IMG/VR virus record: IMGVR_UViG_3300022745_000020
Location: 1 to 64,000 of that record
DNA: 64,000 bases
Reading direction: 5' to 3' (one strand)
DNA from: a virus
Position 1 is the first letter of the stretch; the number at the start of each line of letters is the position of its first letter. The notes under the pieces were generated by a model. The model had not been told where the DNA came from, did not search any database, and worked only from the letters and a program-made list of their open reading frames with translations. Positions 3,398 to 33,664 of the stretch are shown here, in pieces. A program made the translations under genes and the position numbers.

Positions 3398-3403
3398 TAG
3401 TAT

Positions 3404-3697
3404 GCGAGAGTGTAAGTGGTGTGAGCGTCGAGTCGTTATTTGACTCTGACTCACGAGGTCCAGACCCGCACACCCCATCTCGTGTCGTGCATTCCCGCTC
3501 AAGGATAGGGAACTCCTAGGCGACAGACGTCCCTCGTGACGCGCTCGCCCCCATACCCTTACCCTTCTTCACTTGAGCTGTGAGTGATACACGACTTCCC
3601 ATGCACTTAGCACCTATTTTGCTGATACATGGGTATAAGCCAAAGAAGTACCTGACGCACCGAGGGTTGATCCCTTTGGTGCGTCAGGTGGCTTATG
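3404..3697 (+). ncRNA. Candidate structured non-coding RNA
   Basis: About 350-nt ORF-free gap containing four consecutive base-paired domains read by eye (see findings). Strand is inferred from context. Confidence 0.45.
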
Positions 3698-3754
3698 CTG
3701 CCTCAAGATGAAAAGTTACCGAAATCTCCACTCTTATAGAAGAGGAACTCAGTC

Positions 3755-7633: not shown

Positions 7634-10600
7634 ATGAGTACCGAACAAACCATCACACTGCAACAACTGCTCGATCAAACCGCACAGATCTCTCAAGATG
7701 TCCTCATCGAGAAGTACTGCAAGGATGGTGAGACCACTGCCGATGAAGTCTATGCTCGAGTCGCCAAAGGACTGGCTCAAGCTGAGAAGCCGCAAGATCG
7801 CGACAAGTGGGAGAAAATCTTCTACCATCACTTGCAGAACTACGGAGTCGGTGCTGGTCGGATCATGTCCGCATGCGGCACTGACGTACAGGCTGCCCTA
7901 CTGAACTGTTTTTGTCAGGGTGTGGGTGATACGTTTGACCCCGTCGATGAAGATGGTCACCCCGGTATAATTCAAGCAGTCGCTCAAGCAGTCAAGACTA
8001 TGTCCAAGGGTGGTGGGGTCGGATATAACTTCACTAACATTCGCCCACGCAAATCGTTGGTCAAGGGAACCCTTTCCACCACATCCGGCGTTTGTAGCTT
8101 TATCGATATCTTCGATATCGCTGGAAAGACAGTAGAAAGTGCCGGAAACCGTCGGGGTGCGCAATTAGGTGCTCTGGATATTGACCACCCTGACATCTAT
8201 GAGTTTGTCCAAGCCAAGCGCGAGCCGGGTCGTTGGTCTGGGTTCAATGTGTCGGTGGCTTGTTCCGATGCCTTCATGCAAGCTGTGCAAGACGATGGTA
8301 TTTGGGAGCTTAAGCATAAGGCTCAACCTCACCCGAAATATCAAAAAGAATGCTATCAACGCGAAGATGGGCTATGGGTCTATCAGGTCGTAAAAGCAAG
8401 GGATCTGTTTGATACTATCACCAAATCCACATATGACTATGCCGAACCCGGCATTCTTTTCTTGGATAAAATCAATCGAGAAAATACAGTCTACTACTGT
8501 GAAGAAATCAAGACCACCAATCCATGCGTGACGGGAGATACTCGCCTACACACGCAATACGGGATGGTGCAGATCAAGAATCTTTACGATATTAAATGTG
8601 ATCTGATAGTCACTGTAGATAACCGCACTCTGGACTCTGAGGAGTTTGGGGTGACTACTCGTCCCGCCGTTCCAGCGTTCATGACGTCATCGAGAGCCGC
8701 AGTCTATAAAGTCACTTCCAAAGACGGGTACTTCGTGAAGGGTACCAATTGGCATGACTTCTATACTCAGCGCGGTAAGATTAAGCTCAAAGACCTGACC
8801 ATCTCCGATAGCTTCCTGGTCCAATCTGAGATGGGTCAATTTAATTCATTGCAAAATGAATCCCTGGTAACCGAGCTGATGAATCAGTACGGTGATCTGT
8901 CAGCCGGCGTGCCCGACGAAGCATTCTCCCTGTGCCAGGAAGATACCAAGACGTACATTCAGCACGTTTTTTCCATTAATGGGGACTTCAGATTTGATTT
9001 CCTGAATACGGGAGTTGTTCTGGTTTTCAAATGCACTGAAAAAGAGCATCTGCAATCCATTCAAATGCTGCTGGCAAACTTTGGAATCTTCAGCAGCATT
9101 GAGAAAACAAGTAGTGGGTATGAGCTTGAAATGCGGGGTTCTCAAGTAGGGCTCTACCTGGATCGAGTCGGGATGAATAATCCGGAAAATGAGGCGTATG
9201 CTCGTCGACGCTACGAAGAGGTAAACGATCCTCAGAAGTTCGACTACACGACTGAGATTGAATCTATTGAATTTATTGGGTATGAGGCCGTTTATGACAC
9301 CACCCAAGCTGATCACAATAGCGTGATCTTTAACGGAGTGGTTACGGGTCAATGCGGCGAGTTGCCCCTCCCCCCATACGGCTGTTGCGACCTCGGTCCA
9401 CTGATTCTCCCCCGTTTCGTGAAAGATCCTTTCACTGAAAACGCTACTTTCGATATGGATCGGTTTGTGCAGGCTGTCAAGACACAGGTTCGCATTCTGG
9501 ACAATGTACTTGATATCACGCTGTGGGCTTTGGATGAACAGCGTATCGAAGCTGCAAATAAGCGTCGCATCGGTGTAGGCTATACTGGCATTGGCGATGC
9601 AATGATTATGCTAGGTATCCGATATGACTCTGCCGGAGCTGTTTTGTTGGCTGGGAGTATTGCTAAACAGATGAATGAAGCCGCATTTGAAGCTTCGATT
9701 GATTTGGCTGTCGAGCGGGGGTCTTTCCCTCTGTTCGACGTAGATAAGTTTATGGCGGGGCCGTTCATTCAGCGTCTTCCTAAACATCTCCAAGACGCAA
9801 TTCGCGAGAAAGGCATTCGCCATTCGCATTTATTGTCAATTGCACCTACTGGAACAGTGTCTCTGGCATTCGCTGATAACGCCAGTAACGGAATCGAGCC
9901 TGCATTTAGCTGGGTGTATTCTCGTCGCAAGATAGGTCCCGATGGACAATTCCAGACCTATCAGGTCATGGACTATGCTTTCAAGACTTACATCAAGGAA
10001 GTATTATCCAAGCAAGAATCTGAAGAGTATTGCATTGGCTTTATTCAAGCCGTTTCTGAAGGTAAGAGTGAATATCTTGGTAAGAAGATCAAAGAGATTC
10101 TCCCAGATGCATTTGTAACAGCCTTAGAGATTGATGTAGATGCTCACCTGGCTATCTTGTTTGCCACTCAGCCGCATGTGTCCTCGGCCTTGAGCAAGTG
10201 TGTGGCCGAAGGTACTCGCATCATGACTAATCAAGGTCTTCTGAAAGTAGAAGAGCTTGGGGAGGCTGAAGATCCCGATACATTTGCAGAACCCATCGCT
10301 GATCTGAAGGTCATCTGTCCCGATGGTCAGTGGCGAAAGGTCACTAAGCACTATTACGGTGGAGTGCGACCCACCATTAAAATCCGCTTGGATAATGGGC
10401 AGGAAATTGAAGGTAGTGAAGTTCATAAACTCATGACCCCATATGGGTGGACTCCGATGAGTGAGCTCAATTACCATGACTATGTTTGCATTCGTCGCGA
10501 TGTGAGTATGGACTATCCAGGTGGAAAAGAGCTACCTGGTATCGACTTTGCAAGTCATGCAAAGGACTTCACCATCCCGGAGAAGATGTCTGCGGAACTA

Positions 10601-12322
10601 GCGATGTTTCTCGGTATGATCTGTGCAGATGGGCATCTGCAAGAGAAGGCAGGTCTAGTGTCCTTAACGAAGAATGACCAATCAGTAGGAGCTCTCTTTG
10701 CAGACCTTTGCAAGACGCTGTTTAATGCCGAAATTAAGCACCGTATAGATCCCAGGAACGGTGTGCATTATTGGCAATTTACATCCAGGGCAGTGGTTCG
10801 TTGGATCAAAAATCTGATCGGATACCGCTCTGCTGACAAGCATGCCCCTGAGGCGGTGATGTCGGGATCTCCAGACGAAATGCGCGCTTTCTTGGCAGGT
10901 GTTAGCTTGGATGGATACCGGGCAAACTTCCTGTCCGGTGGTAGTTCAGCCACTGTAATTTACATGGGGCGGTCCAAAGAGCTTGCCGGCAATTGCTTCT
11001 CGTTGCTCAACGCTTTGGGGTATGCCCCACGAGGGATGACCAAGCGTGTAAATGGTTATGACTACCTCGTATATGGGGTCATGTGCTATGGGTTTGAGGG
11101 TTGTTTGCAAGACCACAAGAATACCCAGCACGTGCAGCCGAATGAGTTAATTAAACTACCCTTCGGTGTTAACCGGGGTATGTTCTCTGCATATAGTCAG
11201 GGTTATAAATATATGTGCAATATTGAAGTTCGCAATCAACCTGTGAGCAGAGAGCAATCCGTGAGAAAGTATCTCACGGGAGAAGACTCCCCTCAAGAGC
11301 CGTTTATTTACCGCAAGATTACCTCAATTGAGCGTTGTCAAGCTCACGTGTACGACATTGAGGTGGAGGAAAGTCACGACTATCTTATCGATGGCGTGGT
11401 CTCCCATAACACCGTCAATTGCCCTGAGGATTATCCTTTCGAAGACTTTCAGGATATTTACATGAAGGCCTGGAAGGGTGGTCTCAAAGGTGTCTCCACT
11501 TATCGCCCCAACCCAGTGCGACCCGGTATCCTCACTGCCCCAGTGGAGAAGAAAGAAGAAGTAACTCCTCCAAAGCAGGATGTGGTGGTTGAGATTCTAT
11601 CTTCGCTTGATGATGTCGACCCACGCACTCTAGAGCTCAATAAGCTCCCTTACCAGGATCTCCCAGCCATCAAGATCAAGACAGAGATGCTGGTGAACTA
11701 TGTTTCCCACAATCTGCACCTGATCGTATCCTTTGCACGCGTATCGGGTATCCATCGAGGGCAGCCTGTGAGCATCTATCGACCTGTGGAGTTCTTCATT
11801 CCTCAGTCTCAGCTCGATGGTGCTCCTCAGTGGGTGACTGCTTCCATGCGCATGTTATCTTTGATGGCCCGTGGTGGTGCTCAATTTGCCAAAGCGCTCA
11901 GTGATATGCGCAACATCACCTGGGCTGGAGGTCAAGTCCAGTGTGGTAAGACCATCACTGCAGATGGTAAATCTAAGCCCATCTTCCACAGCAGTGACAC
12001 TGCAGCCATCGCCTGGATCATCCAAGATCTGCTGATTCGCAATGGTTATCTGGGCGAGGATGGCGCTATGCTCAGCGTGGATGAGCTGATGGTCAATCAG
12101 GCCAGTCGTCGCCCCTATGAGCCTCTACAGTACGCCGATATCCCTGCAGTGCGTGTGCCTCAAACAGTCCAAAAGGTGACTGAGTCCGTCACTGAAAAGA
12201 AAGATGTACCGAAGGCTTTGGTCAATGGCAAAAAGTGCCCTGAATGCCACAGCATGACTCTGGTCAAGCGAGATGGCTGTGAGAAGTGTGATACCTGCGG
12301 CTACACGGGTAGCTGCGGCTAA
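7634..12322 (+). CDS. nrdJ: Class II (adenosylcobalamin-dependent) ribonucleotide reductase with two inteins and fused C-terminal TSCPD/Zn-ribbon region
   Basis: GRI, NCF, GGGVG, RRGAQ, EPGILFLD, TNPC/GE split by intein, RRIGVG, IAPTGT, GIEP, SK/TVN split by intein, GLKG.STYR, C-terminal CPEC..C..CGY..C. Confidence 0.95.
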   Translation: MSTEQTITLQQLLDQTAQISQDVLIEKYCKDGETTADEVYARVAKGLAQAEKPQDRDKWEKIFYHHLQNYGVGAGRIMSACGTDVQAALLNCFCQGVGDTFDPVDEDGHPGIIQAVAQAVKTMSKGGGVGYNFTNIRPRKSLVKGTLSTTSGVCSFIDIFDIAGKTVESAGNRRGAQLGALDIDHPDIYEFVQAKREPGRWSGFNVSVACSDAFMQAVQDDGIWELKHKAQPHPKYQKECYQREDGLWVYQVVKARDLFDTITKSTYDYAEPGILFLDKINRENTVYYCEEIKTTNPCVTGDTRLHTQYGMVQIKNLYDIKCDLIVTVDNRTLDSEEFGVTTRPAVPAFMTSSRAAVYKVTSKDGYFVKGTNWHDFYTQRGKIKLKDLTISDSFLVQSEMGQFNSLQNESLVTELMNQYGDLSAGVPDEAFSLCQEDTKTYIQHVFSINGDFRFDFLNTGVVLVFKCTEKEHLQSIQMLLANFGIFSSIEKTSSGYELEMRGSQVGLYLDRVGMNNPENEAYARRRYEEVNDPQKFDYTTEIESIEFIGYEAVYDTTQADHNSVIFNGVVTGQCGELPLPPYGCCDLGPLILPRFVKDPFTENATFDMDRFVQAVKTQVRILDNVLDITLWALDEQRIEAANKRRIGVGYTGIGDAMIMLGIRYDSAGAVLLAGSIAKQMNEAAFEASIDLAVERGSFPLFDVDKFMAGPFIQRLPKHLQDAIREKGIRHSHLLSIAPTGTVSLAFADNASNGIEPAFSWVYSRRKIGPDGQFQTYQVMDYAFKTYIKEVLSKQESEEYCIGFIQAVSEGKSEYLGKKIKEILPDAFVTALEIDVDAHLAILFATQPHVSSALSKCVAEGTRIMTNQGLLKVEELGEAEDPDTFAEPIADLKVICPDGQWRKVTKHYYGGVRPTIKIRLDNGQEIEGSEVHKLMTPYGWTPMSELNYHDYVCIRRDVSMDYPGGKELPGIDFASHAKDFTIPEKMSAELAMFLGMICADGHLQEKAGLVSLTKNDQSVGALFADLCKTLFNAEIKHRIDPRNGVHYWQFTSRAVVRWIKNLIGYRSADKHAPEAVMSGSPDEMRAFLAGVSLDGYRANFLSGGSSATVIYMGRSKELAGNCFSLLNALGYAPRGMTKRVNGYDYLVYGVMCYGFEGCLQDHKNTQHVQPNELIKLPFGVNRGMFSAYSQGYKYMCNIEVRNQPVSREQSVRKYLTGEDSPQEPFIYRKITSIERCQAHVYDIEVEESHDYLIDGVVSHNTVNCPEDYPFEDFQDIYMKAWKGGLKGVSTYRPNPVRPGILTAPVEKKEEVTPPKQDVVVEILSSLDDVDPRTLELNKLPYQDLPAIKIKTEMLVNYVSHNLHLIVSFARVSGIHRGQPVSIYRPVEFFIPQSQLDGAPQWVTASMRMLSLMARGGAQFAKALSDMRNITWAGGQVQCGKTITADGKSKPIFHSSDTAAIAWIIQDLLIRNGYLGEDGAMLSVDELMVNQASRRPYEPLQYADIPAVRVPQTVQKVTESVTEKKDVPKALVNGKKCPECHSMTLVKRDGCEKCDTCGYTGSCG
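8525..9352 (+). mobile_element. Intein 1 in NrdJ (276 aa, ends Gly-Gln, degenerate endonuclease)
   Basis: NP|CVTGDT...T.WHDF...VYD.T....NGVVTGQ|CGE. Removing it restores the NPCGE active-site motif. Confidence 0.9.
10199..11410 (+). mobile_element. Intein 2 in NrdJ (404 aa, LAGLIDADG endonuclease)
   Basis: SK|CVAEGT...S.VHKL...FLGMICADG...FLAGVSLDG...VYDIEV...VSHN|TVN. Removing it restores SKTVN. Confidence 0.93.
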
Positions 12323-12964: not shown

Positions 12965-12978
12965 ATGCGGCACATAGC

Positions 12979-13023
12979 CCACTACACTCTAGGAGGACGT
13001 GATGTCCTCCTAGAGTGTAGTGG
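12979..13023. terminator. Intergenic palindrome (CTACAC family)
   Basis: Perfect 20-bp stem with GTGAT loop. Confidence 0.75.
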
Positions 13024-13346
13024 TGCTTTGTCTCAGACCTTATTGATCTTGGGTGGGATGTACAGCGGGTTGATGAACATTGCCCACAGCTGCAGTTGAA
13101 AATAGATGATACGGGACCACAACATAATCTTCACCTGAACACTTTCTTTAATTACACCACTCGGCCGAGCAGTCACAGGATGCCGCTGTAGTGCGTAGAG
13201 GGAAATATACCCAAACCAAGTCGGTAAATCCCGCAAGATATCAGCGTAAATATAACAACCCTCCCCCATACTGTAGACCTGGGTTATGGCGGGTCTACCC
13301 CCTACACCACGCCGATTATAGGCGCAGGTGCAGGGGATTCTTGTAG

Positions 13347-13477
13347 GATATCTGTGAGCGCGCACTCCACGGGTCGTGGGGGATCATCGTGCTACGACAC
13401 GCAGATATCTTTCTCACCAATGCTCCCGATGCACTGGATCGATCGATCCAGTGCAAGAGGCGCACCTTCTGAGAAGG
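13347..13477 (+). promoter_or_regulatory. Structured 5' leader of the lytic transglycosylase gene, sequestering the SD
   Basis: gatatctgtg/cgcagatatc domain, perfect 26-nt palindrome at 13430-13455, ctttctca (13409-16) pairs with tgagaagg (13470-77). Confidence 0.5.
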
Positions 13478-13486
13478 AGTTCCACC

Positions 13487-14188
13487 ATGTCGTACTTTCG
13501 TTTCGCATTGTTCATCATCTTCATGTTGCTCAATGCAGTCTCTCCCACCGCCAGCTGGGCTTTTGATGCGAACTTCATCACGCACGAAAGCCGTGGCGCA
13601 GTCTCCCCCACCAAGGCTCAACAAATCGTCGATCTGGTGCACCAATACAGTCAAGAGTATGGAGTCAACCCACAGACTGTGTTCAAAGTCATGCGAGTGG
13701 AGTCCAGATACAACCCCAAAGCAAAGTCCAATCACAATGCAGTAGGTCTGATGCAGATCATCCCCTACTGGCACAGAGATAAACTCAAAGGTAAAGACCC
13801 CTACAACATCGCCACCAACATCAAAGTGGGCGTGCAAGTCTTAGCTGAGTACATCGAACAAACTGGCAGTGAAGTAGCCGGCCTCAGACGCTATTGTGGG
13901 GGAGATCGCTCCTACGCTAAGTTAGTCAAGTCCGTCAAGTACATCCACTACGACCAACCCTACGAGAAATCCACTCACTCCACTTATGCTCGAGCTAGAC
14001 CCACTCCAGAAGCGCACTCATCTTCCGACATGCTAGCGCTGGCTGTGATGACATCAGACGTCGATATGTTTCCCAAACCCAAAGAGTACAAAGGTCTCTA
14101 CCCCAAGCAGTCTGCCCAGCGACACGATCAGACGCTAGGATATCGAGAGCGATACCCTAGCGACAGTGATGAGTCTGATATCATTTGA
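13487..14188 (+). CDS. Lytic transglycosylase (SLT/GH23) with signal peptide
   Basis: Signal-like N-terminus ending ASWA, VES (catalytic Glu), GLMQI, NI..G...L, AAGGAG SD before ATG 13487. Confidence 0.9.
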   Translation: MSYFRFALFIIFMLLNAVSPTASWAFDANFITHESRGAVSPTKAQQIVDLVHQYSQEYGVNPQTVFKVMRVESRYNPKAKSNHNAVGLMQIIPYWHRDKLKGKDPYNIATNIKVGVQVLAEYIEQTGSEVAGLRRYCGGDRSYAKLVKSVKYIHYDQPYEKSTHSTYARARPTPEAHSSSDMLALAVMTSDVDMFPKPKEYKGLYPKQSAQRHDQTLGYRERYPSDSDESDII

Positions 14189-14220
14189 AATTATACACGT
14201 GAACCTCATGATGTAGTGAG

Positions 14221-14326
14221 TAAGTGCATGTGTGTGTGTGAAACGGTTTCCTCCTTGTGAGGTTCTCCTGGTCCCGAAGGGACATTTACGACAGGCTGAG
14301 GGGTAATTCCCTCAGCCTGCCTTTTT
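14221..14326 (+). ncRNA. Candidate trans-acting sRNA with GU-repeat and anti-SD seeds
   Basis: CAUG(UG)5, UUUCCUCCUU, GUUCUCCUG, a small hairpin (14271-83), then an intrinsic terminator (14292-14326). The 5' end is not known. Confidence 0.45.
14292..14326 (+). terminator. Rho-independent terminator
   Basis: caggctgaggg-gtaatt-ccctcagcctg followed by ccttttt. Confidence 0.8.
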
Positions 14327-14370
14327 GACGTCTTTATTTTTTTTTTTTAATAGAGTACATTGGATAAAAA

Positions 14371-14396
14371 TATAGACCTATATCATCAAGTTGAGT
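14371..14396 (+). promoter_or_regulatory. Putative phiKZ-type early promoter
   Basis: TATATCAT core at 14379, similar to the TATATTAC copy at 26956, with AT-rich upstream sequence. Confidence 0.5.
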
Positions 14397-14451
14397 TGAG
14401 ATTTCAACAAAGGTCTTTATTTCACTAACTCTGCGAAAAGGAGAAGTAATC

Positions 14452-15000
14452 ATGACACGTGTAGCCCTTACAGCCATCTACTCCCAGTGCAATGATCGAA
14501 TCATGGGGGTCAATGGGGAACTCCCTATCAAGCTCAGAGCCGATATGAAGATGTTCATATCGGCTACTGAAGGCAATCACTGCATCATGGGAAGAAAGAC
14601 TTGGGAGTCACTGCCCGAGTCCATGAAGGTCAACAAACGTGGTCGTACATACTACGTTCTCACCAAGGACCACCTCTACTGTCCGGGTCATGGAGCTATC
14701 CCTATCTATGACCTGCATACATTTCTGGTGATGATGTACACCGTAGCTCCGATGGTCTATTTGCTCGGAGGGGCTGACATCTTGCAGCAGTATCAGGATG
14801 TATGCGACACCCTGATGGTCACTGACATCAACTACGATGTCGATGTCAAGGAGGGTGATAGCCTGAGCTTTGCCCCTATGATCAATCCGGGCAAGTTTCG
14901 GCTCTACGTGAAGTCACCACTGCTCTCAGAAAAACTCAAGGGTAGTGAAGTCGGTTTTGAATTCAAGACTTACGTCAAGATCGAAGATCGGAAAAATTAA
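14452..15000 (+). CDS. folA: Dihydrofolate reductase
   Basis: MG..G.LP....D...F...T, IMGRKTWESLP, GR..YVLT, LLGGADI. Confidence 0.92.
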   Translation: MTRVALTAIYSQCNDRIMGVNGELPIKLRADMKMFISATEGNHCIMGRKTWESLPESMKVNKRGRTYYVLTKDHLYCPGHGAIPIYDLHTFLVMMYTVAPMVYLLGGADILQQYQDVCDTLMVTDINYDVDVKEGDSLSFAPMINPGKFRLYVKSPLLSEKLKGSEVGFEFKTYVKIEDRKN

Positions 15001-15383: not shown

Positions 15384-15415
15384 TCTGCTACCGCACTACA
15401 GGAGAACATACACAC

Positions 15416-15736
15416 ATGGGACCCATCGAAGGTTATCAGTACAATCTCGACGAACTCGCACAGATGCGAGACTTCAACATCCACTTCGAAGCCGAATTCA
15501 GAGGCGACACGGTGGCTGTGCAGCTGGGGCATCACGGCATCCAAGCGATGATGAAAAAAGATCAGCTGTGCAGCATGCTGTGGACTTGCACTCGCCGTCG
15601 AGGTGACGAAGTGACCTTTATGCCCTCCAAGCTCTATGAGAGCATGGCCGCTGTAGAGGTCTATAAGTCCAAAGACCCCAGCAAGAAATACTGGGCCCAT
15701 TTCCGTGGGCTGGAGGTGAATCAACCCACACGGTAG
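15416..15736 (+). CDS. Hypothetical protein
   Basis: AGGAG SD followed by a CA-repeat spacer before ATG. Confidence 0.75.
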   Translation: MGPIEGYQYNLDELAQMRDFNIHFEAEFRGDTVAVQLGHHGIQAMMKKDQLCSMLWTCTRRRGDEVTFMPSKLYESMAAVEVYKSKDPSKKYWAHFRGLEVNQPTR

Positions 15737-17542: not shown

Positions 17543-17600
17543 ACTCTCTGCACCTAGAAGGATGATCCCTTCTAGGTGCAGAGAGTATCTCTTTTTTTTA
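17543..17600 (+). terminator. Terminator hairpin (CACCTAG family)
   Basis: 19-bp stem, ATGATC loop, T tract. Confidence 0.8.
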
Positions 17601-17666
17601 TTTTTTCGTATATTGTGATAGAAAAGTCTTCTATCTTCTCCTATTTTTCTGGTGAAGGAACACAGC

Positions 17667-31944: not shown

Positions 31945-33627
31945 ATGTTTCATGAGGATCTCAGAGCTGCAGTGGCTGAAGATACCCCTCAGGTCAATCC
32001 ACTCATCGGCAACGGGTTGATCACCGCACACATCAAACAAGGGCTGGCTTACCTCGATAGTGTCTGGCGTGAAGTGGCTCAATCATTTCCACCAGGCTTG
32101 AAGTACATGGGCTGTCGTGAGCTCACTCCTTTGGAGGAGTTTGCTTTGCGCACACGTCGCACGAGCTCTCGCCCACCTCAGATCGATCTGGCTCGCTGTG
32201 ATTTGCGCATGGTGAGGTTTGATCTGACCTATAATGGTGCACCGCTCGATCCTGTGCATCTGCAAGTGCCTTTCTTTGGCGCCGGTGGGTCGTTTCATCT
32301 GTCGGGATCTTTGTATCAGTACAGCCCTATCTTGGCTGACCGTGTCATCAGCGTCAACCGCAACGGCATCTTCGTCAAGTTGTTGCAAACGAAGATCATT
32401 TTTCATCGAGTCATCTACTACTACAACACCAACAACCCAGGTAAATCTCAAGAGATCATGCCTGTGGTGTGGGGGCGTATATGGAACGGCAGTCTGGACA
32501 AGCCCACTGGAGCCACCAAGGTCAACGGACACTCCACGATCGCCCATTACCTCTTTGCTCAGTTTGGAGTCAAGGAGACGTTCAAGCGCTTTGCCGATGC
32601 TGATGTGGTCTACGGAGATGCCAATCAAATCAACGAGAGTAACTACCCCCGAGACAAGTGGATCATCTGCACCAGTGCGAATGTACAAATCGGTGGCAGA
32701 CGCCGCAAGCACGTAGAGCCCAACGAACTGCATGTGGCAGTACTGCGCAGTCAATACACCCATCTGGTCAAGACCCTGATCGCTGGTATCTTCTACGTCA
32801 CCGATCGATTCACCTATCGACGCGATTACATGCGCATCGAGAACAAAGATCGCTGGCGTGTCATGCTTGGGGTATTGCTCTTCGGGCGTGATAAGAATGA
32901 AGGTGCGTTGCTGGCAGACATTGATGATCATTTGAAATCCATGGGACGCTACGTCGATGCGATCGCCACCCACAACCTGCGTAAGGTTGGCTACGAGATC
33001 ACAGACATCTACGAGCTGTTCATCCTGATCTTAAATCGCATCGATGCTTGGATCATTGAGGGCGATAGCTCCAGCAGTTCATTGTACAAGAAAGAGTTCT
33101 CGACTCTATACAACTTGTACTTCAATATCACATCGGCGATCTTCCACTTTCTGTTTGAGTTGGAAAAGCAGCAGCGTCGCACGGGACTGTCAGAAAGACA
33201 TATTAACGAGCAGCTGCGTGCGGTGATCAAACCTGGACTCATCTTTGCCCTCAAGAGCGGACATGGTGAGGTGTGGGTATCTGACTATGTGGGCTCTAAC
33301 ATGCTGCTCAAATGCACGAGCATCATCACCCCCCAGCACAAAGCCACTCAGGGCGGTAGATCCTCACCGACTACAGATCCAGCTCGCAGATTGGATAAAT
33401 CCCATCTGGAGGTCTACCCTGTAGCTGGTATGACCAAGGCAGAACCCATGGGTGGGACTCGCATCAATCCTTTTTTGAATATCTCCGAGGACGGCACCAT
33501 CAATCGCAATCGAGATCTGGCTGCTCTGGTGGATTATGCAGGAGAGATGTTCGCTCACAATCAAATTCAATCCTATCGTCCTCATGAGGACGATGACGAA
33601 GACGACCGCCTGGAGATCGATGATTAA
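31945..33627 (+). CDS. Non-virion RNA polymerase beta-like subunit (phiKZ gp123-like)
   Basis: P..NP.I..GL, FP.GLKY.G....TP.EE, DLA..D, SP.L.DRVIS, HYL...FG..E.F, K..P.G..RINPF, syntenic with capsid and portal. Confidence 0.8.
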   Translation: MFHEDLRAAVAEDTPQVNPLIGNGLITAHIKQGLAYLDSVWREVAQSFPPGLKYMGCRELTPLEEFALRTRRTSSRPPQIDLARCDLRMVRFDLTYNGAPLDPVHLQVPFFGAGGSFHLSGSLYQYSPILADRVISVNRNGIFVKLLQTKIIFHRVIYYYNTNNPGKSQEIMPVVWGRIWNGSLDKPTGATKVNGHSTIAHYLFAQFGVKETFKRFADADVVYGDANQINESNYPRDKWIICTSANVQIGGRRRKHVEPNELHVAVLRSQYTHLVKTLIAGIFYVTDRFTYRRDYMRIENKDRWRVMLGVLLFGRDKNEGALLADIDDHLKSMGRYVDAIATHNLRKVGYEITDIYELFILILNRIDAWIIEGDSSSSSLYKKEFSTLYNLYFNITSAIFHFLFELEKQQRRTGLSERHINEQLRAVIKPGLIFALKSGHGEVWVSDYVGSNMLLKCTSIITPQHKATQGGRSSPTTDPARRLDKSHLEVYPVAGMTKAEPMGGTRINPFLNISEDGTINRNRDLAALVDYAGEMFAHNQIQSYRPHEDDDEDDRLEIDD

Positions 33628-33637
33628 TTCATCGACA

Positions 33638-33664
33638 GCACAGTCATATATCATCAGGTAAGTC
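33638..33664 (+). promoter_or_regulatory. Putative early promoter
   Basis: cagtcaTATATCATcaggtaagt, core at 33647. Confidence 0.5.

Follow-up and report, generated by a model that had tools for sequence, protein, structure and literature searches.

The spacer between the genes for an SLT-domain lytic transglycosylase (slt) and dihydrofolate reductase (DHFR) of this phage carries an element, at positions 14186-14326, that is real and functional as judged by its conservation, and whose invariance, by sequence comparison, exceeds the needs of termination alone. We propose, with a probability of roughly 45%, that 14186-14420 acts in cis to mark an operon boundary, as a module made up of 3′ hairpins, a terminator, a read-through translation lock and a restart promoter. 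The evidence favours such a boundary module, acting on its own transcript, over the GcvB-like small RNA controlling a CA-tagged gene set that an earlier note on this DNA had put forward.

Positions refer to the window, the whole 64,000-nucleotide stretch analysed, which covers the opening 64 kb of a phage contig of 147.9 kb (51% G+C); those beyond it are given as genome coordinates. The genome record holds 147,902 bases, whereas the window's proteins are recorded in the protein collection on a contig of 206,514 bases, and the genome record may therefore be incomplete. Two genes frame the element:

13487-14188, plus strand: slt, SLT-domain lytic transglycosylase gene (Pfam PF01464, E=1e-17), last gene of the upstream operon
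14452-15000, plus strand: DHFR gene (Pfam PF00186, E=5e-23), first gene of the downstream operon

A conserved structured element in the slt-DHFR spacer

A large protein collection yielded one syntenic relative lineage, with 66% amino-acid identity in SLT (233-aa form against the relative's called protein) and 59% in DHFR. At least 14 assembled contigs carry it, the ten listed coming from ten sequencing runs. No DNA similarity to deposited phages was found, and the closest protein relatives in deposited phages reach at most 41% identity. An IMG/VR match to the SLT protein (40%) was non-syntenic and was not used. The exact 20-mer of the anti-Shine-Dalgarno (anti-SD) core described below had no match in IMG/VR, and its single match in JGI metagenomes, inside an unrelated AT-rich coding region, was set aside as chance.

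Identity to the relative is 0.81 in the region of hairpin HP1, 0.91 in the terminator and 0.92 in the promoter block, compared with 0.67 in the spacer between terminator and promoter block and 0.59 in the final 39 nt of slt; four-fold degenerate sites in the four neighbouring genes give 0.38-0.56. Since the 0.67 spacer lies between conserved blocks, this pattern points to selection and not to recent transfer. Outside the loops, 14246-14326 is about 98% identical, with one position differing; the anti-SD core and the terminator are the most conserved part of the element and the GU tract is not, while the relative's two sub-lineages differ from each other, across the slt-DHFR spacer alignment, solely in hairpin loops. 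A structured, terminator-ended, non-coding slt 3′ UTR element is kept in the relative, and the ORF-free gap with its U-tailed terminator reads exactly as the earlier note had quoted it.

A second terminator, at 17545-17605, served as a yardstick for neutral terminator drift between the two phages: it keeps a long perfect stem whose sequence differs in the relative through compensatory changes. Because this terminator drifted over the same evolutionary distance, termination alone does not need sequence invariance. Elsewhere, a 357-nt structured spacer behind the DNA ligase gene (3398-3754) is 81% identical to the relative's, with some changes that look compensatory (GGTGTG/CACACC arms against GGCGTG/CACATGCC), and is a candidate for a further conserved non-coding RNA.

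The 162 nt 3′ of the slt stop codon fold into four hairpins with a z-score of -4.5 against shuffled controls (-3.8 for the relative's counterpart), and a consensus fold of three distinct sequences (RNAalifold) retains all four, with one compensatory pair in HP1 (U-A/C-G). The features of the region are as follows:

14185-14212, plus strand: candidate sigma-70-like hexamers, TTGAAA and CATGAT with a 16-nt spacer (9/12 match, weak)
14192-14236, plus strand: hairpin HP1, in MFE and centroid folds, 5′ arm UAUACAC(G)UG.. with 3′ arm ..CAUGUGUGUG
14229-14240, plus strand: (UG)6 tract, of which 14229-14236 lie within the HP1 stem and 14237-14240 dangle
14250-14262, plus strand: small hairpin HP2 (CCUC, loop CUUGU, GAGG), predicted fold
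14262-14270, plus strand: anti-SD core GUUCUCCUG (DNA GTTCTCCTG), invariant, complement of the common phage SD context CAGGAGAA(C)
14271-14283, plus strand: hairpin HP3 (GUCCC-GAA-GGGAC), predicted fold, stem invariant
14284-14291, plus strand: A/U-rich linker AUUUACGA, invariant in the alignment with the relative
14292-14327, plus strand: intrinsic terminator, a G+C-rich 12-bp stem (14292-14319) with a 4-nt loop, then CCUUUUUG
14320-14350, plus strand: U-rich tract with a T12 run at 14337-14348, predicted partner of the DHFR SD on read-through RNA
14353-14387, plus strand: copy of a recurrent promoter-like motif (..ACATTGGA..N..CCTATATCATC), putative promoter of the DHFR operon
14371-14418, plus strand: 48-nt block invariant between the two lineages, containing an AGACCU..AGGUCU hairpin and the part of the motif that resembles a -10 element

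The 5′ arm of HP1, UAUACACGUG, begins three bases past the slt stop codon, which itself falls within TTGAAA. HP1 pairs 14227-14236 with 14192-14201; its inner stem is perfect in the relative, its apical sequence CAUGAUGUAGUGAG is invariant, and the relative's counterpart of the (UG)6 tract is GGUGUGUGUU. The probability that 14227-14236 is unpaired is below 0.1 in the mRNA context and 0.1-0.4 for an RNA starting at 14221. Because the (UG)6 tract forms the 3′ side of HP1, the mRNA does not present it as a free seed.

HP2 includes the 16S-like anti-SD CCUCCUU (CCTCCTT in DNA, 14250-14256) and shows one loop substitution (U/A) in the relative. Between HP2 and HP3, UUCUCCUG is mostly unpaired according to the unpaired probabilities. 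Among 136 leaders, the SD context AGGAGAA occurs in 10 and CAGGAGAA in 5. The HP3 loop is flipped from GAA to UUC in one sub-lineage of the relative. A terminator scan calls the 14292-14319 hairpin, with CCTTTTTG directly after the stem; the stem is invariant relative to the other lineage and the loop variable.

A coding function was rejected: by direct reading the plus-strand ORFs have at most 10 codons, neither strand holds an ORF of 40 aa or more in 14189-14333, and an indel in the relative breaks the frame. The whole window gave no Rfam match at gathering score, permissive Rfam thresholds gave nothing meaningful, and neither tRNA nor tmRNA was found.

Further upstream, the window has a 522-nt gap at 12965-13486 that lacks a convincing gene, and the relative carries in this region a gene for a 213-aa HTH_17 protein, with the alignment gap at about 13184-13231. 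On either side, 13032-13180 and 13257-13480 match the relative at 78-92% identity, pointing to a deletion in the window phage. The large subunit of ribonucleotide reductase (RNR; window 7634-12322) has 1562 aa with intein and LAGLIDADG hits, and variants of the relative encode 1229 aa (contig L002, 4444-8133) and 2032 aa (L003, 1131-7229), so that intein content is polymorphic.

Proposed read-through occlusion and a putative restart promoter

Based on these features, we propose that the RNR-to-SLT transcript would end in HP1, HP2, HP3 and the strong intrinsic terminator, an array that would stop transcription and probably protect or define the 3′ end of the mRNA. The (UG)6 tract would simply be one side of HP1, paired with the CA-rich arm just past the stop codon. 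On RNA that reads through, pyrimidine-rich segments upstream of the next promoter would occlude the SD of the next gene, the putative occluder being the U tract 14320-14350 in the window phage and the anti-SD core in the relative. Transcription would then restart past the occluders from a phage-type promoter at 14353-14387, yielding translatable mRNA of the DHFR operon. Complementarity of the element to other start regions would stem from the low complexity of its GU/CA sequence and from its anti-SD content.

The predicted occlusion is pronounced. With 300 nt of upstream context, the mean modelled unpaired probability of the DHFR SD is 0.01, against 0.44 on promoter-proximal RNA; the predicted value ranks second from the bottom among 135 genes (median 0.46), and the predicted gain fourth from the top. 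Between the U tract and 14434-14447 the expected number of base pairs is 12.7. In the relative, it is the anti-SD core with which the downstream SD is predicted to pair (9.8 expected pairs), with modelled unpaired probabilities of 0.09-0.14 versus 0.46-0.56 on short RNA. Gene 137473, beyond the window, behaves similarly in the model (0.18 in long context, 0.77 in short). The long-range pairs between occluder and SD are in each case thermodynamic predictions only. As the occluding partner differs between the lineages, cis pairing leaves the roughly 98% identity of the core, HP3 and the linkers unexplained.

The promoter-like motif, roughly GT.TATTGcAgAAAt.TAcA..CCTATATCATC, has seven intergenic copies upstream of genes (at 14377, 33645, 84280, 106630, 118624, 140969 and 141415) and probably represents, on the strength of this recurrence, a phage-specific promoter class. 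The copies span:

14353-14387 and 33613-33655 in the window
84248-84290, 106598-106640, 118592-118634, 140937-140979 and 141383-141425 in genome coordinates

Several loci may be noted alongside. Before gene 137473 (genome 137180-137475) lie a terminator, about 125 nt containing UUUUCUUCCUUUC, a cUUCGg-type terminator and UGUGUGUG-AAGGAAGA-AUG, and the MFE structure pairs anti-SD with SD across the terminator. Between 300-nt and short contexts, the modelled unpaired probability of the SD rises from 0.09 to 0.83 at thyA (window 4866) and from 0.03 to 0.53 at gene 99653 (genome), and the SD of gene 7147 (window) is predicted to be closed in both. One variant of the relative has two extra genes, encoding a 58-aa protein and a DUF4326 protein, between the invariant block and DHFR (L002, 10957-11509; L005, 1645-2197), with the junction exactly after the common Shine-Dalgarno sequence CAACAGGAGAA.

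The proposed lock has a precedent in phage T4, where the ribosome-binding sites of genes e, soc, 49 and I-TevI are sequestered in a hairpin on long read-through transcripts, translatable RNA coming from a promoter located within that hairpin. The order of occluder, promoter and SD is the same here, and the DHFR SD is likewise predicted to be closed on long RNA and open on promoter-proximal RNA. Unlike in T4, a strong terminator separates occluder from SD, the pairing reaches over 100-180 nt, the two lineages have different occluders, and the lock is known here from prediction.

Predicted pairing with translation start regions and CA-rich leaders

The alternative that best survives, although we consider it doubtful, is a small RNA that comes from the slt 3′ UTR and acts in trans by base-pairing with phage translation start regions. 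It would be produced from a weak internal promoter with a start near 14220, or by cleavage in the U-rich linker ahead of the core. Its seeds would be the core GUUCUCCUG/CCUCCUU and also the GU tract, the latter provided that the RNA lacks the 5′ arm of HP1, and it would repress genes such as 15416, whose start region is:

15399-15418, plus strand: start region of the 106-aa gene 15416 (function unassigned), contiguous complement of 14262-14270 plus 14227-14237

The pairings on which the earlier note built this idea are present in the sequence. The start region of 15416 reads CAGGAGAACATACACACATG, the exact complement of 14262-14270 (9 bp) and then of 14227-14237 (11 bp, one G-U); 1062-1073, upstream of gene 1091, is an exact 12-mer complement of 14230-14241; and the start of gene 40940, CACACATGCGC, pairs over 11 bp with one G-U. 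CA tracts stand ahead of genes 476, 1091, 20882 and 23413 (the latter two on the minus strand), and also ahead of 145030. The 20-nt contiguous complement to the 15416 start region speaks for a trans-acting RNA; 0.6% of the dinucleotide-shuffled versions of 14241-14291 yield a 9-mer complement abutting the CA-tract site (P about 0.006, in a test picked post hoc), and the pairing potential with 15416 is retained in the relative (-31.6 and -31.5 kcal/mol).

Interactions were scanned as 22-nt sub-window duplexes plus opening energies, with a cut-off of -10 kcal/mol or better. An RNA starting at 14221 passes with 17 start regions against 3.6 +/- 3.6 for dinucleotide shuffles (1 of 58 shuffles as good); for the relative the count is 7 out of 39 start regions, where shuffles give 0.9 +/- 0.9 (0 of 60 as good). 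The strong interactions exceed shuffles in both phages, which supports a trans-acting RNA, yet they do so by different seeds: the signal is driven by the GU tract in the window phage and by the anti-SD core in the relative. In the mRNA context, moreover, the GU tract is paired in HP1 and the number of start regions falls from 17 to 6. Chance is answered in part, in that pairing from 14221 beats shuffles and CA-run leaders are enriched (below), but most of the excess is lost in the mRNA context. A free, GcvB-like G/U seed, as envisaged earlier, is not supported, given that fall to 6 and the tract's location in the 3′ strand of a conserved hairpin.

Read in reverse complement, the core is similar to AGGAGAAYCUCAYCAUG, the start-region consensus common to both phages, and this fits a trans-acting RNA directed at start sites. 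In a k-mer scan of all sense-strand windows for complementarity to start regions, however, the core matches 16 start regions and other windows up to 30, so the core is not exceptional. Cognate and swapped pairs of small RNA and target from the two phages score alike, so no co-variation is seen. Collinear pairing of the two seeds is impossible in most CA leaders, since there the SD follows the CA tract.

The layout itself is compatible with a small RNA: single-stranded linkers, core and terminator are invariant at the sequence level (about 98% outside loops), and the hairpin, AUUUA linker, terminator and U tail resemble the modules usual in Hfq-type small RNAs, although no Rfam family matches. 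If used, the candidate hexamers would place a transcription start near 14219-14221. In the relative, neither hexamer has changed although 5 of the 16 spacer bases have, and the HP1 apex is invariant, all of which fits an internal promoter; the match is weak, however, with 2 sites of the 9/12 grade in the 2-kb region against 2.8 expected from shuffles. Derivation of a small RNA from the slt 3′ UTR is compatible with the layout, but the evidence favours a module acting on its own transcript. A trans-acting RNA would be best supported for the anti-SD core and not for a GcvB-like GU seed.

Within -50 to +5 of starts, on the sense strand, eight CA runs of at least 7 nt were observed where about one was expected, and five of at least 8 nt where 0.3 were expected. 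Thirteen of the 41 CA/GU runs are intergenic (10 CA-sense, 3 GU-sense), although intergenic DNA makes up 9% of the genome. Beyond this enrichment, a conserved CA-tagged regulon is not supported: the relative's orthologues of 476 and 1091 have no CA tract in their leaders, the 15416 orthologue alone (1 of 3 orthologous leaders) retains CAGGAGAAUACACAUG, no CA runs of at least 7 nt occur in the relative's leaders in the DNA scanned (L012, L013 and L003), and Pfam and PHROGs gave no common function among predicted targets. This lack of conserved CA leaders also counts against a trans-acting RNA. ACA motifs are documented translation enhancers (PMC3879156), and the enrichment of CA in leaders is therefore explained without any small RNA. 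At the base of a terminator-like hairpin on the minus strand at genome 78880-78930, a CA run is likewise paired with a GU run (ACACACACUCCCCUCCACAGCC ... GGCUGUGGAGGGGAGUGUGU), and CA/GU arms recur in hairpins of this genome.

Enterobacterial GcvB uses a G/U-rich single strand to repress mRNAs through C/A-rich enhancer elements. Its targets carry C/A-rich or ACA translational-enhancer elements (PMC3879156). As in GcvB (RF00022), a G/U repeat is here complementary to CA-rich leader elements, and CA tracts are enriched in the leaders of this phage. The GcvB covariance model gave no hit at E up to 10 in 14100-14470 and, unlike GcvB, the element is phage-encoded, lies in a 3′ UTR, has its GU tract in a stem and not in a single-stranded R1-like region, and faces CA-rich target leaders that are not conserved in the relative (476 and 1091 orthologues).

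DapZ, which has a GcvB-like G/U seed, and CpxQ are enterobacterial Hfq-dependent small RNAs derived from 3′ UTRs. The element shares with them a terminator common to the parent mRNA, a 3′ UTR more conserved (0.81-0.91) than the slt coding end (0.59) and four-fold sites (0.38-0.56), and a possible internal promoter or cleavage site; it differs in being known here from sequence and not as a discrete Hfq-bound transcript with regulated targets. AgvB, as summarised in a later article, is a prophage anti-small RNA that mimics the CA-rich targets of GcvB (Tree et al. 2014, cited in PMC12197685). On that summary, the two share phage-borne GU/CA complementarity, the CA arm of HP1 resembling an internal target mimic for the GU tract, but AgvB is a separate trans-acting sponge of a host small RNA, whereas here both arms lie in one hairpin.

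A fuller version of the trans-acting idea would make the element a 3′ UTR-derived riboregulator of start sites in two lineages, with its core antisense to the phage's own consensus ribosome-binding region and its GU seed kept hidden by HP1, acting as a built-in mimic of CA targets, until freed by processing or by use of an internal promoter; the RNA would then switch off a class of phage genes, 15416 first, during infection. We regard this as rather unlikely.

Other readings and significance

The element could also be a plain structured 3′ UTR with a terminator and no anti-SD function, kept invariant by a phage or host protein that binds its hairpins and linkers, such as a nuclease, an RNA-binding regulator or an antitermination factor. 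Invariant stems with variable loops would suit such a protein, and the 81% conservation of the post-ligase region suggests that conserved structured intergenic RNA is habitual in these phages. We nevertheless hold this to be improbable: neither a candidate protein nor a known motif was found, the unconserved HP3 loop speaks against a boxB-like loop-reading protein, and the extreme predicted occlusion of the DHFR SD would be left unexplained.

Very improbable, in our judgement, is that the element works at the DNA level, its RNA features being incidental, as a conserved regulatory cassette that lies at a module junction and provides either homology for recombination or a palindrome for protein binding. 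The position of the two extra genes in one sub-lineage, exactly after the common SD and downstream of the invariant block, agrees with it, and the L002-type sub-lineage of the relative has the window phage's GAA loop, which hints at exchange; however, a recombination tract accounts less well than constraint on RNA structure for the patchy alternation of conserved blocks with diverged spacers and for the restriction of changes to loops.

Three further candidates were rejected or, in the second case, set aside: a minus-strand gene start, where SD-like sequences are present but the sole ATG, 20 nt on, opens a 7-codon frame; a DHFR attenuator or riboswitch, for which there was neither an Rfam match nor a convincing alternative pairing with a terminator arm; and a lambda nut/boxB-like role of HP3, ruled out by the GAA to UUC loop flip.

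In large virulent phages, post-transcriptional control is poorly mapped, and the element provides a concrete conserved non-coding case with two testable readings. Under either of them, the lineage-specific CA-repeat leaders are candidate translation enhancers. If the trans-acting reading were true, the element would be among the very few base-pairing small RNAs of a lytic phage that target phage genes. If instead it acts as the cis-acting boundary module that we favour, termination would be coupled with translational silencing of read-through RNA at several genes of nucleotide metabolism and replication (DHFR, thyA and gene 137473), and the principle known from T4 would extend to an unrelated large phage.
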